In this document: positions 6,001 to 12,000 of the stretch, one piece after another
How the letters are laid out: each line of letters opens with the position of its first letter
Numbering within the stretch: the first letter of the stretch is position 1
Source: Fimbriimonadia bacterium
Lineage (GTDB): Bacteria; Armatimonadota; Fimbriimonadia; Fimbriimonadales; JABRVX01
DNA: 64,000 bases
Direction of reading: 5' to 3'
NCBI GenBank assembly: GCA_041483895.1
Contig: JBGPGO010000001.1
Coordinates: forward strand, 1 to 64,000
Program-made: the position numbers

Positions 6001-9000
6001 TTGCGCCGAAGATGGGAATGCCGACCGAAATTGTTTCTATGTTAGGCCTGTCGTTGGCGCAAATTTTGCTACCAGCGGGCTAGATATCAGCCGAGCAGTT
6101 TCTGAAACTCATGGCAAATTGCAAAGAGCGTTCAAAGGTAAGGGCTTTCAAGTATCAGCGCACGATCTGAACACAATCAAAGTGTGTTTGTAGTATGATA
6201 TGCCCAGTGGTCGGAGCGGAGATTCGGTCGTCTGCGGCAGGATGCCAGCAGCGCCAAGGTGAGGGGAGGGGACACCTCAGTTCATTGTGGGTTCCGGACG
6301 TCGGTCGGTCGATATGCACCTGCGATGAGCTACCGGTCCGAGACCGGGGGACATTTCGCGCAGGGCGACACCCTGGCGCATCGTGATAGAATTTCAAACC
6401 AATCCTGGTAACCGAGTAAACTTGACAGCAGGAGGGGATGCGTATCCATTCTGAAAGGAACAAAACTCGATGTCGGACTTTGTATTCAGGGATTTGAATA
6501 ATGAAATTCGTGTTCTCATGGTTGCTGAGATCGAAATGGATATTCGTGACGATGTCTTAGTGCCGAGTAAATTGTTCAACGATCATGGCCATTCGAAATA
6601 TCCGCATCTCATTTTGCGAGCGGCGCAAGCCTTTGATGAACGGTGGTTAGCCGGGAACTTAGTCGGTGCATTTCATGAATGCCATCCGGGGACAGGTAGG
6701 CGTGTTCGGTCTGACCAGCATGTGTTTTTTTCGCAATGCGAATTCAATCGATTTTACGTCCGGGCTGTTTGCCAATTCGCGATAGAGCGTCCAGAATTCC
6801 GCGCCCGGGTTTATCGGGCGAGGGCATCGGAAAATCCGCGACCGGAATCTGAAGCATTGATCGGCACTTTTGTTGTTCCAGAAGACGTGCTAAGGGATCT
6901 TCGGACGAGACTTGGGACTACTCCGCAGTTTGGCGTAGCGCAGGTAAGCAGCGGTCTTAGCCTCGAATTGGTGGAAGATGGCGATTCCTTCTAGTAATTC
7001 CCAGATAACTTGGCCGCATCGACTGACCACCGACCGTAGGATGCTAGGGGCAAGCTGCGATGTCTGGTACGACTTCGATTGGTTGGCCGTTATTGGCCAC
7101 AACCAGCCGAAATTCGCAGGATGCACCGACTTGACTGACGCCATTTCTCGCTTTGCCCAACAGAGGCGCAAAGAACCGATATTACTGCTAACCGACAAGT
7201 CCGAAGTTGCCTTTTCGGAGATCGTCACACGCGACAAGTATATTGCCGTCGTGCGAGCCGAGGATTTCCTGCGGCACGCCACTGAAAGTGATCGCTCCGC
7301 GTTGTTTTTCCTCAACATAATTAGCGCATCTGGGGCGATTTCCAGTACGGGAAGTTCTCCACTTGCCTTAGATAGAATCGTAGCGAGAGTCGACGATGAT
7401 CAGACAAGGATTTCATTAAAGACGTTAGTGTCCGGCATTTGGCATAAGCTATCCGCCGTCTCGGACCGAAAGGCACTCCACGATCTTATCCGGACGGAAA
7501 AATTCTTGCCAGACGATGTGATGGACGTCGCCGTCTTGCGGAGCCGCCAGGATTCAATCGTAGAATTGCGGAAGATGGTACACCGAAACGCTGTGGAGCA
7601 GCAATTTCAACAGTGGTTCTTAGGGAATCCATGGGTCTTCGGAACGGACTGCGTCCGAATACTGGACGACCGCCGAATCGACGTTGAAAACGTGGCGGAT
7701 TGCCTCACGGCAAGCTTTGACGGCCACCTCGACATCATTGAGCTAAAGAGACCGGGCTCCAAATTCTGGAGCAAGAATCGGGACCATGACAATCTCGTTC
7801 CACATGCAGATCTCGTGAAAGCTATCACGCAGGCGGTGAACTATCAGTATCAGCTGGAATTGCAAATGGACAACGTATCAACCGTGGAACGACTCGGGGG
7901 GCATCCAATTGCAAAGCCCCGGTCCTGGCTTGTCCACGGAAGAAGCAATGGCTGGGATCCATCTGAATTCCGCGCTCAGCGCCTTCTAAACGGCAGCTAC
8001 GCCAGTATCCAGGTATTGACCTACGACCAGGTCATAGCACGTGCTGCAAGATTTGTCTCGGATCATTCTTAGAGCCTTCATTCATAAACAATCGCATCTT
8101 TGACTGATTTTGTGTTAAGGTCTTGACGATAACTTGCCGACCGCAGCACTGATGTCGCCCACGGTCATGATTTTTGCTTGCGACTCAAACGCAGCACTGC
8201 CAGGAAACTTAATTGCAAACCGATCCTCAAGTGCTACGAGAATCTCCTGTAGGTCGAGGGAATCCGCACCTAGATCTAGCATTAAGCGACTCTCGATCGA
8301 AATCGCGTCGGAATTTAGGCCCAGCTTATCGGTGAGGACTTCAAGGACGCCCTGGGGGATCACCGAGACATCTCCTTCCGCTGTCGCACGGTTTTGGCTT
8401 GCCATGTTACGTAATGTAGCTTCGCACCATTTGTATTTACCTGCCTCCATAGCGTAGTTCCCCATAACGCTTGCGCCTGGCTCCACATTCTTCGTTACCC
8501 CAGTCCTGCCGTAGACCGTTACCGCCTCACCAATTTGGACACCAGCCGCGACACCAGCTTGGCCGTAAACCGATGCCCCCGCACCGATGAGTACATCGCC
8601 CGCGATGGCGCAATGGCTTACAATGAGGACGTCGTGAGCAATCATCGCGCCATGACCAATTTGCACTCCATTTCCAATTCTGGAACCGCGACCGATCGAC
8701 GTGATGTCCGTGATGCATCGATCAATGCTACAGAGGGCGCCAATTTCAACGTCGTTGGCTATTTCGACGTTCCCGATGGCGTGATATGACAGGAATGAAC
8801 CGTCCTTTCGCCTGTATGCATTTGGTCTGCCACCTATCACAGATCCAACTCCGATCACCACCCTTTCACCGATTTTGACACCGGCCTCTATAGTCACGCC
8901 GGCGCAAATACGGCAGTCTCCCCCAATTTGCGCATCGCATCCGACACTGACGTTTGGCCCCATTATTGACCCTGCGCCGATAATAGTACGAGGACCAAGG

Positions 9001-12000
9001 GATACGCTGGGATGAAGCAGCGCGGTTTGATCAACCGCAATTCCGATAATGTCCATTCCAGGTCGGTCAGCGTCCATATACGGGTCAAATGTTTCGCATA
9101 TTTGGCGAAACCTTAAGAATGGATCCGGGCAGATGATGATCGCGATGTCTCCTGCCTGGACTTGCGATGCAAGGTCTCGTGTCGTAATGATGGCGGTTGG
9201 ACGCTTCGACTTCGCCCTTTGAAAATATCCTTCGTTATCGGCAAATGTCAGATCTCCGTCCTTTACTTTCGCTACCACGTTCAGACCCGCGATCAAGGGA
9301 GAACGACCCGCATGTAGCTCATCGTCGGAAAACAGGTCCGACAATAGCAATGGTCGACTAAACTGCACTATTCAACACACTCGCTCTTCATGATCGTCTC
9401 TTTGAGGATGCGTCAGCGGTCCTGGTGCCAAGTTCATTCACCCGCAGCAGGCAGTTGCATTTTCTTTCGAATTTGTGACCAAAGTACCTTTAATATCTGC
9501 TGAGTTCCTATTGCTAGTCCGCTTTCCAGCACCAGGACGATGCAGTTATAGTGCGACTGGTGTATCCCGATGTTAAAGGTCTGTACGATTCTAATAGGGT
9601 TCTTGTTTTCTCTCGGCAGTTCACCCGGTCCCGGAAATAATATCACCTTCAATCTCTTAAACCTTGGTACAGTAACCTCATATATCGCCTTTTTCTGAAT
9701 AACAACATTCGTGGCCGGCTCGTCATACCCCGTTATGAATCCGTAGTGGTTCGTGATAACAAATATGTCCCCACTTTGATGTGCATAGTCGTCGACGGTG
9801 TAGGCGATCTCGTATGTGCGCACGGAATATGGTGGGATCACAAAATGCTCATCCGGTTTGGGGGGAACGATTTCGAGTAGGCTGTCTCCAGCGCCACGCA
9901 CGAGTTGACATCCCATCGGCCGGCGCTCCTTGCCTTCTCTGGTGTCCCATTCGACGTGAGCCTTCAGGTCTTGCGCATTCACGCGAATTCGGTCGCAATA
10001 GGGTGCTCGTAGGGACAGTGCGGTACCGGACCTGTTTGTTACTGTTTTCCGGTCGACAATTGACGCCGACCGACCACTGATCCGGTACGTAATTTCCGCT
10101 TGAATGGTGGTTGAGGCTTCCACGGTGTATCGCTGGCTCACCTTCTATTGCAGTTTTATGATAGATGTAGGCTGGAGGTATTTTACCAGGTTTCCGTGCC
10201 CGCACGGGTCCAACTGCGGAGGCTCCATGCAGTTGGATGTCCGGGAGAAGCAATGGCGTCAATCCGTCGACCGATTGAGGCATCCACCGATGTGTTGGGG
10301 TCTAGATGGGCGCCGGGCCGGGGTGTGGTGGTCGCAGTGAACCCCAACACATCGGCCCTCCTTCACAATGGGGATTGTGAGGGCAGAAATTGATAGAGAC
10401 GCGTGCAAACCGCAGCCGCTTGGGTTCGCAGTATTTCACAGCCTCTCTCAATCGGGGCTGCGGCTACCGGGTTGCTGGTTGGTCGGGTTGGACGATCTCC
10501 AGCGGGCCGTATTTGCGCAGGCCGGATTCTATTTGCTTGCGCTCTCCCACCGCCATCAGTTGGATGCGATTCTTCCCCAGGTACTTGCGCGCGACGCGTT
10601 GGATGTCCGCAGCGGTGACCTTTTCTATGCGCGAGGGGTAGGTGTCCCAATAGTCCAGCGGCAGGCCGTTTTGCACCAGCTCCAGCGTGCGACCCAATAT
10701 CCCCTCCGCGCTCTCCAACGTCAGCGCAAATCCGCCGACCAAGGAGCGCTTGGCGGCCCCCAATTCCGAAGGCGGGACCGGCGTATCTTGCAGGCGGTCG
10801 AACTCCTTATAGAACTCGCCCACCGCCGGCTCGGTCACCTCGGTGCGGACGCTGGCGCTCGCGCCCCAACTGCCCGTCCACTCGTTGGCGGTGAGGCTGC
10901 TGTACGCGCCATAGGTGTAGCCCTTTTGCTCGCGGATGTTTTGGAACAGACGCCCGGACGAGCCGCCGCCCAAAATGCGATTGGCCACGACGAGCGCGAT
11001 GTAGTCCGGGTCGTTTCGCTTGACGGCGAGGTTGGAGAATTGCAGCACGGTCTGGGCGGAGCCGGGCCTGTCTATCAGATAGATTTTGCCCTGCTCTTTC
11101 GGCTTGAAGTTGGCGGGGGGCAGCTTGGCGGTTGTGGGTCCGGGCTTCCATCCGGCGAAGGCCGCTTCCAATTTACTCTTCAGCGTCTTCATATCTATGT
11201 CGCCGCTGATGCCCATGATCGCGCCGTTCGGGGTGAAGTAGGCCTTGTGGAATGCCATGAGATCATCGCGGGTGATGGCGTCAATGGATTCCGCGGTGGG
11301 GACGGGGCGGCCATAGGGAGTGCCGCCATAGAACAGCTTGTTGGATAGCTGGCCGATGAGCATTTGCGGATTGGTTCGCATCTGCGCGAGGCCGGACTTT
11401 TGCTGGAATTTGGCGCGGTCCAGCCGGTCCTGCGGAAAGGCGGGATGGAACAGGCGGTCGGTCATCATGGCGAGCAAGGTGTCGGTGTATTCCGTGAGGC
11501 CGGCGGCGCTGATGTTGGCGTTTTCGTTCCCGGATCCTGCGTTGACGTTCGCGCCGATGTTCTCGGTGTCTTCGGCCAGCTGCATGTAGGTCTTTGTTGT
11601 GGTGCCTTCGTCCAGTTGGGAGGCGGTCATTCCCGCGACGCCTGGTTTGTTTTCGAAGAGGGAGCCCGCGCGCATTTGGAGGTTGAAGCGCACGACGGGC
11701 ACCTTGTGATCTTCCAGCACGTAGACTGTGACGCCGTTCTCCAGCCTGAATGATTTAGCCTTTGGGATCTTTACTTTCAGGATCTCTTTGGCGACAGGGG
11801 CTTTGCCTTTGATTACCGCGCCGGGCTGGTCGCTGACGCCGGGGGTGTCTTGGGCGTAGACAAGGATCGGAAGGACGGCAGCGATTACGAGGAGGCTTGG
11901 ACGGATGTGTTGGGGTCTAGGTTTATGGCACACCCGGGGAAGCGGACATAGTGAACCCCAACACATTGTAAATCTCATTCTCAATGATCTCATAGCTCAT

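Follow-up and report, generated by a model that had tools for sequence, protein, structure and literature searches.

An LpxD-like N-acyltransferase paralogue with a fused acyl carrier protein domain in a Fimbriimonadia bacterium

A gene of a Fimbriimonadia bacterium (8115..9368, minus strand) was found to encode an LpxD-like N-acyltransferase and a complete acyl carrier protein (ACP) domain in one polypeptide of 417 aa. Positions refer to the window, the stretch of 64,000 nucleotides of contig JBGPGO010000001.1 that was analyzed. The transient pairing of LpxD with its ACP is a textbook case of an enzyme-carrier interaction, and the pair is a target for antibiotics. In the reading favored here, which is given a probability of about 0.5, the gene is intact and encodes an accessory self-carrier N-acyltransferase from a separate LpxD-like subfamily whose members bear an AcpP-like carrier permanently behind the C-terminal helix, and the predicted acceptor is a uridine-linked amino sugar that differs from the usual lipid A intermediate.

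Architecture of the fused protein

The open reading frame is intact, with a GTG start and no internal stops, and the N-terminus of its product aligns with those of relatives. From the N-terminus onward, the LpxD uridine-binding domain is followed by a left-handed beta-helix and a C-terminal helix, after which a short linker leads into the complete ACP domain. Together with Pfam matches to the LpxD N-terminal, Hexapep and PP-binding domains and the motifs in the sequence, this bears out the description of an LpxD-ACP fusion in the genome-wide survey's note. The uridine-binding domain (residues 1–95; 9084..9368, minus strand) was delimited by Pfam PF04613 at residues 24–91 (35.4 bits, cut-off 30.8) and by an AF2 model, and its uracil-stacking positions, mapped through C. 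trachomatis LpxD and a review (PMC6286764), are Phe42 and Tyr48. The beta-helix (residues 112–305; 8454..9035, minus strand) was assigned from a Hexapep match (69.8 bits, Pfam) and the AF2 model. It carries the motif QIGHGAMIAHD (residues 236–246), the catalytic His239 (nt 8652–8654) and the oxyanion Gly257 (nt 8598–8600), the roles of the last two being taken from E. coli LpxD (PMC6286764). The C-terminal helix (residues 309–330; 8379..8444, minus strand), placed by an AF2 helix over the same residues, corresponds to the element through which solved LpxD structures form their trimeric bundle and dock ACP (PMC6286764). Model confidence is low in the linker (residues 331–338; 8355..8378, minus strand), with pLDDT < 50 over residues 321–335, and the AF2 monomer is of moderate quality only (mean pLDDT 72.2). 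Solved LpxD chains were aligned to residues 14–326, the best sequence match being A. baumannii LpxD 4E75.

The ACP domain (residues 339–414; 8127..8354, minus strand) is a four-helix bundle, assigned from a match to Pfam PF00550 at residues 340–396 (35.7 bits, cut-off 20.8), solved ACPs that match residues 333–414, and AF2 helices at 339–349, 370–384, 393–399 and 403–414 (pLDDT ~80–90). The phosphopantetheine serine, Ser370 (nt 8259–8261), lies within LGADSLD (366–372) at the start of helix II. NCBIfam ACP models scored 47–50 bits on the tail, all under their cut-offs, the AcpP equivalog TIGR00517 among them at 47.1 bits against a cut-off of 70.45. The tail is mildly acidic (12 D+E versus 7 K+R in 82 residues), and the domain is 30% identical to the housekeeping ACP of the same genome. 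Given the AcpP score below cut-off and this mild acidity, service of the tail by fatty acid synthase enzymes is not assured.

Paralogue status and the family of fusions

The canonical lpxD is on contig 6, close to an LpxA-like gene, and the fused gene is a second LpxD-type gene, as had been noted previously; it lies elsewhere, outside the lipid A cluster. A canonical LpxD accompanied the fused paralogue in each of the two genomes open to this check (this genome and G406). The housekeeping ACP and the AcpS-type transferase reported earlier were recovered as single copies on contig 15 and contig 23, respectively, and the genome has two carrier domains in all. No second AcpS or further carrier system was found in this genome, and no loading or partner enzyme was seen near the fused gene.

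The name LpxD, which the earlier description had applied, does not hold in its strict sense. The protein scored below both curated cut-offs, with 180.3 bits against TIGR01853 (cut-off 242.5) and 198.6 bits against NF002060 (cut-off 207), and it has Gly232, Gly240 and Gly276 at three substrate-contact positions. Canonical rows have D232 in 122, N240 in 115 and H276 in 106 of 124, and the contig 6 LpxD of the same genome keeps all three. In canonical LpxD, H276 contacts the pyrophosphate, N240 (N/Q240) the ribose and D232 the acyl beta-hydroxyl. With glycine at these positions, standard UDP-3-O-(3-hydroxyacyl)-GlcN and a 3-hydroxyacyl chain are probably not the acceptor and/or donor pair; judged from sequence, the acceptor and/or acyl chain of the fused enzyme would thus differ from those of lipid A synthesis. 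The H276A substitution in E. coli LpxD lowers kcat 32-fold (PMC6286764), so Gly276 could instead mean low activity.

The fusion also proved not to be a one-off. Of the 150 best representative clusters, 13 have the same ACP tail, and with the close relative P0003 there are 14 fused proteins. The other public LpxD-ACP fusions are P0002, P0003/P0270, P0122, P0128, P0140, P0141, P0144, P0146, P0151, P0190, P0210, P0218 and P0229; P0003/P0270, from an Armatimonadota MAG, is already deposited under the plain annotation LpxD (MCK4324616.1). Their identity to the window protein is 26–44%. All 14 retain DSLD with the carrier serine, His239 and Gly257; at position 42, 12 have Phe and two have Tyr, and P0146 and P0229 have an extra tail of ~100 aa. 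Among 120 listed of 2185 matches, PF00550 was flagged on the query only, and ADSLDLVE occurs at the same place in the two nearest relatives, P0002 (430 aa, 288 bits) and P0003 (455 aa, 281 bits), which reproduces two earlier observations; PP-binding scores in these relatives (20.6 and 18.4 bits, respectively) fall just below the 20.8 cut-off. A fused protein of the P0190 type, encoded at locus L370 and more basal, passes both the LpxD equivalog (260.1 versus 242.5) and the AcpP (81.4 versus 70.45) cut-offs, whereas the window protein passes neither.

Trees were computed from the LpxD part alone. In a 152-row FastTree every fused row fell within one starred clade, and in a 51-row IQ-TREE the fused label required one change (a single gain or loss of the tail). 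The fused group and a sister group of short paralogues form a 28-row clade that is split from 23 canonical rows, the genome's own LpxD included, with SH-aLRT support of 99. In the phylum, 401 genomes were compared, and of the 150 matches listed only that of genome G000 reached the ACP part; the fused form was not found among the listed matches of the 400 other genomes. For one other fused gene the DNA could be retrieved, and that gene occurred in a single genome among 87 of its phylum. None of 14 viral-contig relatives had the fused architecture, and no published description of an LpxD-ACP fusion family was found in the literature. By these comparisons the LpxD-ACP fusions are a family with few and scattered members, not described before and distinct from the usual LpxD of lipid A synthesis.

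Genomic setting and sister clade

The fused gene lies in a low-GC island (5142..10340; GC 0.50–0.53 versus 0.58–0.62 in the flanks) that is limited by glnA on one side and a pair of M16 peptidase genes on the other and has copies of a dispersed repeat on either side. The genome as a whole is Chthonomonadales-like. Horizontal gain within a small island is the best explanation for its presence. An ORF of 235 aa (9434..10141, minus strand) is situated upstream on the same strand at a distance of 65 nt, with no terminator-like site on the minus strand between the two; no relatives of this ORF were found, and its structure model was uninformative (pLDDT 39). On the other side is a convergent gene for the Shedu nuclease SduA (6978..8072, plus strand; PADLOC SduA 1.5e-62, Pfam SduA_C), which is regarded as a neighbor, with a putative partnership at most.

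The sister group on the tree is a short Bacteroidota LpxD-like paralogue (~300–337 aa) that, like the window protein, is an extra copy beside canonical LpxD and has lost H276 (present in 0 of 14 rows) and N240 (replaced by D in 12 and G in two). It differs in the lack of a carrier domain and in its coupling to a SpoIIE-type PP2C phosphatase gene, which was found in 52 of 80 loci, in most of them within ~100 nt after the short paralogue (identity by Pfam); the representative P0147 is a natural LpxD-like/SpoIIE fusion. The only other fused gene with readable context, that of L370, adjoins CHASE2-SpoIIE, STAS and sigma-70 genes, in convergent arrangement and with no operon. In the window's genome, in contrast to the sister clade, no SpoIIE domain was matched at E <= 1e-5 (genome 95% complete), and there are no SpoIIE-domain genes within the window. 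The phosphatase coupling and the L370 cluster hint at a signaling role that the favored explanation does not cover.

Proposed mechanism and alternative readings

Under the favored reading, the protein would form a trimer in the manner of LpxD, and Ser370 would be phosphopantetheinylated by the single AcpS of the genome. An acyl-ACP synthetase, or else the housekeeping fatty acid synthase, could then load the tethered carrier, which would dock beside the C-terminal helices, with the acyl-pantetheine arm entering the cleft between subunits. With His239 as general base and the Gly257 amide as oxyanion hole, the acyl chain would pass to the amine of an amino sugar that is linked to a uridine nucleotide and bound by the N-terminal domain. 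The E. coli LpxD-acyl-ACP complexes (4IHF, 4IHG, 4IHH) have the three domains, catalytic His239, oxyanion Gly257 and uracil-stacking Phe/Tyr in common with the window protein, and in them ACP docks on the C-terminal helical domain, the site at which the carrier is tethered here. The covalent carrier sets the window protein apart from canonical LpxD. When the ACP domain was docked on a trimer built from residues 100–332, the score was 0.43 against 0.00 for the best control (partner pLDDT >= 79, contact agreement between runs >= 83%), which lends weak support to this arrangement. Of 157 solved complexes, 116 reached this mark, as did 2 of 215 mismatched pairs; only 18 of the 157, but both passing mismatches, did so at <= 0.60. 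Since solved LpxD-ACP complexes exist, the pass may reflect likeness to them only. Of the survey's proposal of a self-contained acyltransferase working on its own carrier, the architecture and the catalytic, uracil-stacking and carrier residues leave the core standing as the simplest reading, although the fusion is neither unique nor an LpxD in the strict sense; the dedicated fatty acid and the separation from bulk ACP traffic that the survey proposed are conjectural.

An unlikely alternative is a second lipid A LpxD that acts on ordinary UDP-3-O-acyl-GlcN and adds a different N-linked chain from a private carrier for conditional lipid A remodeling. Francisella LpxD1/LpxD2 pairs reportedly vary lipid A acyl chains, with standard-length enzymes that use free cellular ACP; they resemble the present case in having two LpxD-type genes per genome, one of them conceivably for an alternative N-linked chain, and differ in that they are not known to have a fused carrier. 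The full three-domain layout with His239, Gly257, Phe42 and Tyr48, the complete canonical partner set in the host and the passing scores of the more basal L370 protein all fit a lipid A role. The window protein itself, however, is under both LpxD cut-offs and has glycine at three positions that its own canonical counterpart keeps; its clade is split from canonical LpxD with support of 99, its gene sits in an island away from the lipid A cluster, and the fused form was absent from the listed matches of the 400 other phylum genomes. It is more doubtful still that the LpxD-like domain serves mainly to sense acyl-ACP state for a regulatory output, with the fused carrier reporting on the fatty acid pool from within the protein and not acting as a biosynthetic donor. 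The 52 phosphatase-coupled loci of the sister clade, the P0147 fusion and the L370 neighborhood point that way; the absence of SpoIIE matches in this genome and window speaks against it, the L370 case is single and convergent, and strict retention of the catalytic His and oxyanion Gly in all 14 fused proteins argues for catalysis.

A role as defense-island cargo, in which the fused protein would join Shedu or the upstream orphan in countering phage, perhaps through a change of the envelope or a drain on acyl-ACP upon infection, is very improbable. The low-GC island, the adjacent Shedu gene, the same-strand orphan and the sporadic, accessory-like distribution would suit it, but PADLOC defense models matched SduA alone and neither the fused protein nor the orphan, the orphan without relatives offers no conserved pair, the viral-contig relatives lack the fusion, and the L370 fused gene has no defense neighbors. 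Hardly any weight is given to an artefact (misassembly, frameshift or read-through) or to a decaying, functionless acquired gene, even with three canonical contact residues replaced. The frame is uninterrupted, and unitigs of two sediment-metagenome runs (8021–8522 and 8062–8630) span the LpxD/ACP junction (~nt 8350–8380) with no differences, although the window may itself derive from these runs, which are hence not independent support. Conservation of the architecture, carrier serine and catalytic His in 14 proteins of such low identity has largely refuted this explanation already.

Returning to the self-carrier N-acyltransferase, a natural covalent LpxD-ACP would offer a 1:1 complex, ready-made for studies of structure and mechanism. 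The fused family indicates that LpxD has branches outside bulk lipid A synthesis, for which the plain annotation LpxD is probably wrong, and the loss of pyrophosphate- and ribose-binding residues across the clade points to a new acceptor. The SpoIIE-type phosphatases coupled to the sister clade suggest that acyl-ACP chemistry may be tied to envelope or stress signaling, a link open to experiment. It is conceivable, if rather unlikely, that the fusions and the phosphatase-coupled sister paralogues together constitute an unrecognized LpxD-family branch that left lipid A synthesis, an acyl-ACP-dependent acyltransferase module. Such a module would either produce an N-acylated nucleotide sugar or signal the state of the acyl-ACP pool to partner-switching circuits of the PP2C/STAS/sigma kind, and the carrier of the fused forms would be its built-in substrate or reporter.

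The fused gene and its relatives

The fused gene occupies window positions 8115-9368 on the reverse strand as a single uninterrupted ORF encoding 417 aa, with a GTG start. Pfam placed an LpxD N-terminal domain at residues 24-91 (35.4 bits, cut-off 30.8), hexapeptide repeats behind it (69.8 bits) and a PP-binding domain at residues 340-396 (35.7 bits, cut-off 20.8). With NCBIfam, residues 16-328 aligned to LpxD models below both cut-offs (198.6 against 207 and 180.3 against 242.5 bits) and residues 339-408 to ACP models at 47-50 bits, under their cut-offs. Solved LpxD chains matched residues 14-326 (best 4E75, 116.8 bits) and solved ACPs residues 333-414. 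The motifs named in the genome-wide survey's note, QIGHGAMIAHD (with His239) and LGADSLD (with Ser370), were both confirmed. In an AlphaFold2 model made from a 12-row alignment (mean pLDDT 72.2), residues 1-95 fold as an alpha/beta domain at the N-terminus and residues 112-305 as a beta-helix; one long helix follows at 309-330, and a linker of low confidence joins it to a bundle of four helices at 339-414.

The LpxD-ACP fusion is no artefact. The same tail, as the survey had stated, is found in P0002 (430 aa) and P0003 (455 aa), the two nearest relatives at 40-41% identity to the window protein, and the carrier parts of the three share many invariant positions. Exhaustive searching of 1.84 billion representative proteins with phmmer yielded 11,319 matches (E <= 0.001), and a carrier tail was present in 13 of the best 150 (the query, P0002, P0122, P0128, P0140, P0141, P0144, P0146, P0151, P0190, P0210, P0218 and P0229). 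There are hence at least 13 fused proteins among representatives, and at least 14 with P0003, whose cluster includes a deposited Armatimonadota MAG protein annotated as plain LpxD. PP-binding scored above the Pfam cut-off in 8 of 9 scanned proteins of 420-443 aa, the DSLD motif was visible in the alignments of P0144, P0146 and P0229, and His239 and Asp-Ser-Leu-Asp 369-372 were invariant across a 12-row alignment of fused proteins. Unitigs from two sediment-metagenome runs crossed the domain junction without difference; these runs are possibly the source of the window and so are not independent of it. No RNA runs were seen among the sequencing runs listed, which has no bearing on expression. 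Another fusion involving an LpxD domain, a methyltransferase-LpxD protein of 614 aa (P0163), was also present among the representatives.

Further fused forms were sought by several routes. A protein search restricted to residues 285-417 returned the query and nothing else, and the ESM Atlas gave plain LpxD clusters only, at 0.87. In a metagenome scan with alignment A3 (at least 593 stretches, 80 loci examined) no match reached the carrier part, genome-contig scans with queries A2 and P0190 recovered plain LpxD alone, and none of 14 weak relatives on viral contigs was fused. Long matches at the DNA loci L005, L263, L250 and L246 seemed fused and proved on inspection to be unfused. A profile of 12 fused proteins found LpxD in 396 of 401 genomes of the window's phylum, and among the 150 matches listed (710 weaker ones besides) the window's own was the only one to reach the carrier part. 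A degenerate motif search recovered a single further fused locus in DNA, L370. In literature mostly outside subscription journals, none of the best matches described a natural LpxD-acyl carrier protein fusion, and none was relevant to an LpxD paralogue with a C-terminal phosphopantetheine site.

Phylogeny and active-site residues

All trees were built from the columns of query residues 15-322 only, so the tail had no influence on topology. In a FastTree analysis of 152 rows (150 representatives, P0003 and the genome's own LpxD), the fused rows all fell within one starred clade of 28-29 rows. An IQ-TREE mixture-model tree of 51 rows comprised 28 clade rows, 22 random others and the genome's own LpxD; it omitted 101 rows, the long-branch P0226, P0220 and P0237 being excluded deliberately. 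Here 23 canonical rows, the genome's own LpxD included, were split from the 28-row group at an SH-aLRT of 99, and the short unfused proteins formed one side of a branch within that group (support 96). The fused label required one change on this tree, and a single old fusion event would fit it, provisionally, the search having been a 'quick' one with several long branches.

The roles of E. coli residues were taken from section 2.1.3 and the Figure 5 legend of a review (PMC6286764) and mapped through an alignment with C. trachomatis LpxD. The catalytic His (position 239) and the oxyanion Gly (257) were each present in 14/14 fused, 13/14 short sister and 124/124 canonical proteins, the short sisters being unfused paralogues of Bacteroidota. 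The uracil-stacking position 42 was Phe in 12 and Tyr in 2 fused proteins, Phe in 14/14 short sisters, and Phe in 109 and Tyr in 11 of 124 canonical ones. The pyrophosphate His276 was kept by 1/14 fused, 0/14 short sister and 106/124 canonical proteins. At ribose position 240, canonical proteins had Asn (115/124), fused ones Gly (9), Asp (3) or Glu (2) and short sisters Asp (12) or Gly (2); at position 232, which contacts the acyl beta-hydroxyl, Asp was found in 122/124 canonical and 13/14 short sister proteins, and the fused proteins divided equally between Asp (7) and Gly (7). The window protein has Gly at 232, 240 and 276, against Asp, Asn and His in the LpxD of contig 6. From these six positions, and within the residue roles given in those parts of the review, its catalytic machinery and uridine pocket look intact, and its contacts for the standard lipid A intermediate and the 3-hydroxy chain are gone.

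Genomic setting

The host genome (3.95 Mb, 95% complete) carries its canonical LpxD on contig 6 with an LpxA-like gene nearby, one AcpS-type gene and two carrier domains in all, that of the housekeeping ACP and the tail of the window protein. The fused gene lies within a segment of GC 0.50-0.53 that runs from glnA to a pair of M16 peptidase genes, between flanks of 0.58-0.62. The flanking M16 peptidase has its nearest relatives in Chthonomonadales MAGs (Armatimonadota; 65-71% identity), and synteny with these MAGs is limited to the M16 pair, so the borders of the island are not fixable by comparison. An orphan ORF (9434-10141, reverse strand, 235 aa) lies 65 nt upstream of the fused gene on the same strand, and no terminator-like site was found between them; it had no homologue among 5.8 billion proteins, an Atlas recognition of 1969 (guide value 2300) and an AF2 pLDDT of 39. 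The Shedu nuclease gene sduA (6978-8072; PADLOC 1.5e-62) is convergent with the fused gene. Ahead of sduA, and overlapping its start by 17 nt, a 174-aa ORF (6470-6994) that fits no known family may be an accessory gene of this Shedu variant.

A dispersed palindromic repeat, GACCCCAACACNNCGG, occurs 18 times in the genome, with several copies near contig ends, whereas the reversed control does not occur. It lies in the window at 5078-5141, 5195-5222, 10284-10355 and 11907-11917, flanks the island on both sides and includes a 15-nt direct repeat (5127-5141 and 10341-10355). Loose unitig ends at about 5109-5142 and 10337-10669, considered as alternative island cargo, were rejected; they coincide with this repeat and so give no evidence of island variability. 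Elsewhere in the window, a 1088-aa TPR-CHAT protein (51809-55075) stands close to a PIN-domain protein (55779-56204), and the two may form a further defence or toxin-like locus; one 1118-aa ORF (17323-20679) joins GH18, polysaccharide deacetylase and family 2 glycosyltransferase domains.

L370 belongs to a MAG labelled 'uncultured bacterium' and carries a fused gene of the P0190 type. Its product scored above the LpxD (260.1 against 242.5) and AcpP (81.4 against 70.45) cut-offs, the same genome has a canonical LpxD besides (342 bits, adjoining LpxA), and at E <= 1e-60 this type of gene occurred in 1 of 87 genomes of its phylum. The 176-aa ORF upstream belongs to no family and is unrelated to the window's orphan. 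Downstream, a convergent CHASE2-SpoIIE phosphatase gene (981 aa) is followed by STAS, sigma-70 and FHA-GAF-GGDEF genes; together these genes (L370:2271-8952) look like a partner-switching cluster.

Among the short sisters, Pfam identified a SpoIIE-type PP2C gene directly after the LpxD-like gene in 52 of 80 Bacteroidota loci (L001-L080; for example L005:9905-10876 and L005:10877-12100), mostly 4-100 nt away, and the representative P0147 (578 aa) is a natural LpxD-SpoIIE fusion. Five short-sister genomes each held one or two canonical LpxD above 330 bits and a paralogue of about 190-208 bits. Searches of the literature, mostly outside subscription journals, found no publication combining LpxD and SpoIIE, and none of the best matches tied LpxD to PP2C, RsbU or partner-switching.

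Function of the fused protein

According to the parts of PMC6286764 cited here, the main binding site for ACP on LpxD is the C-terminal domain, and the pantetheine arm reaches up through the inter-subunit cleft. The carrier of the window protein is tethered by some 8-15 residues right behind the C-terminal helix, at that same site, and by this analogy we interpret the protein as a self-carrier N-acyltransferase. AcpS would prime the carrier and a fatty acid synthase or acyl-ACP synthetase would load it; the nature of the acceptor we likewise infer. Modelled docking of the carrier on a trimer of residues 100-332 scored 0.43 against 0.00 for the best control, with partner pLDDT of at least 79 and at least 83% contact agreement between runs, and lends weak support. 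In calibration on 157 solved complexes and 215 mismatched pairs, 116 of the former and 2 of the latter passed, and passes scoring 0.60 or under comprised 18 of the solved complexes and both mismatches. Because LpxD-ACP complexes have already been solved, the pass may reflect likeness to these only.

Among the alternatives, most weight falls on a second lipid A LpxD with a private carrier, a proposal to be set beside both the intact-looking catalytic site and the lost lipid A contacts. A sensor role linked to PP2C signalling comes next: the phosphatase genes of L370 and of the short sisters bear on it, and in the window's genome, searched at E <= 1e-5, no SpoIIE domain was found, so the SpoIIE link is not required for the window protein. 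Cargo of a defence island, with the Shedu gene as neighbour, is less probable again, and an artefact or decaying gene, given the open frame and recurrent tail, is the least probable.
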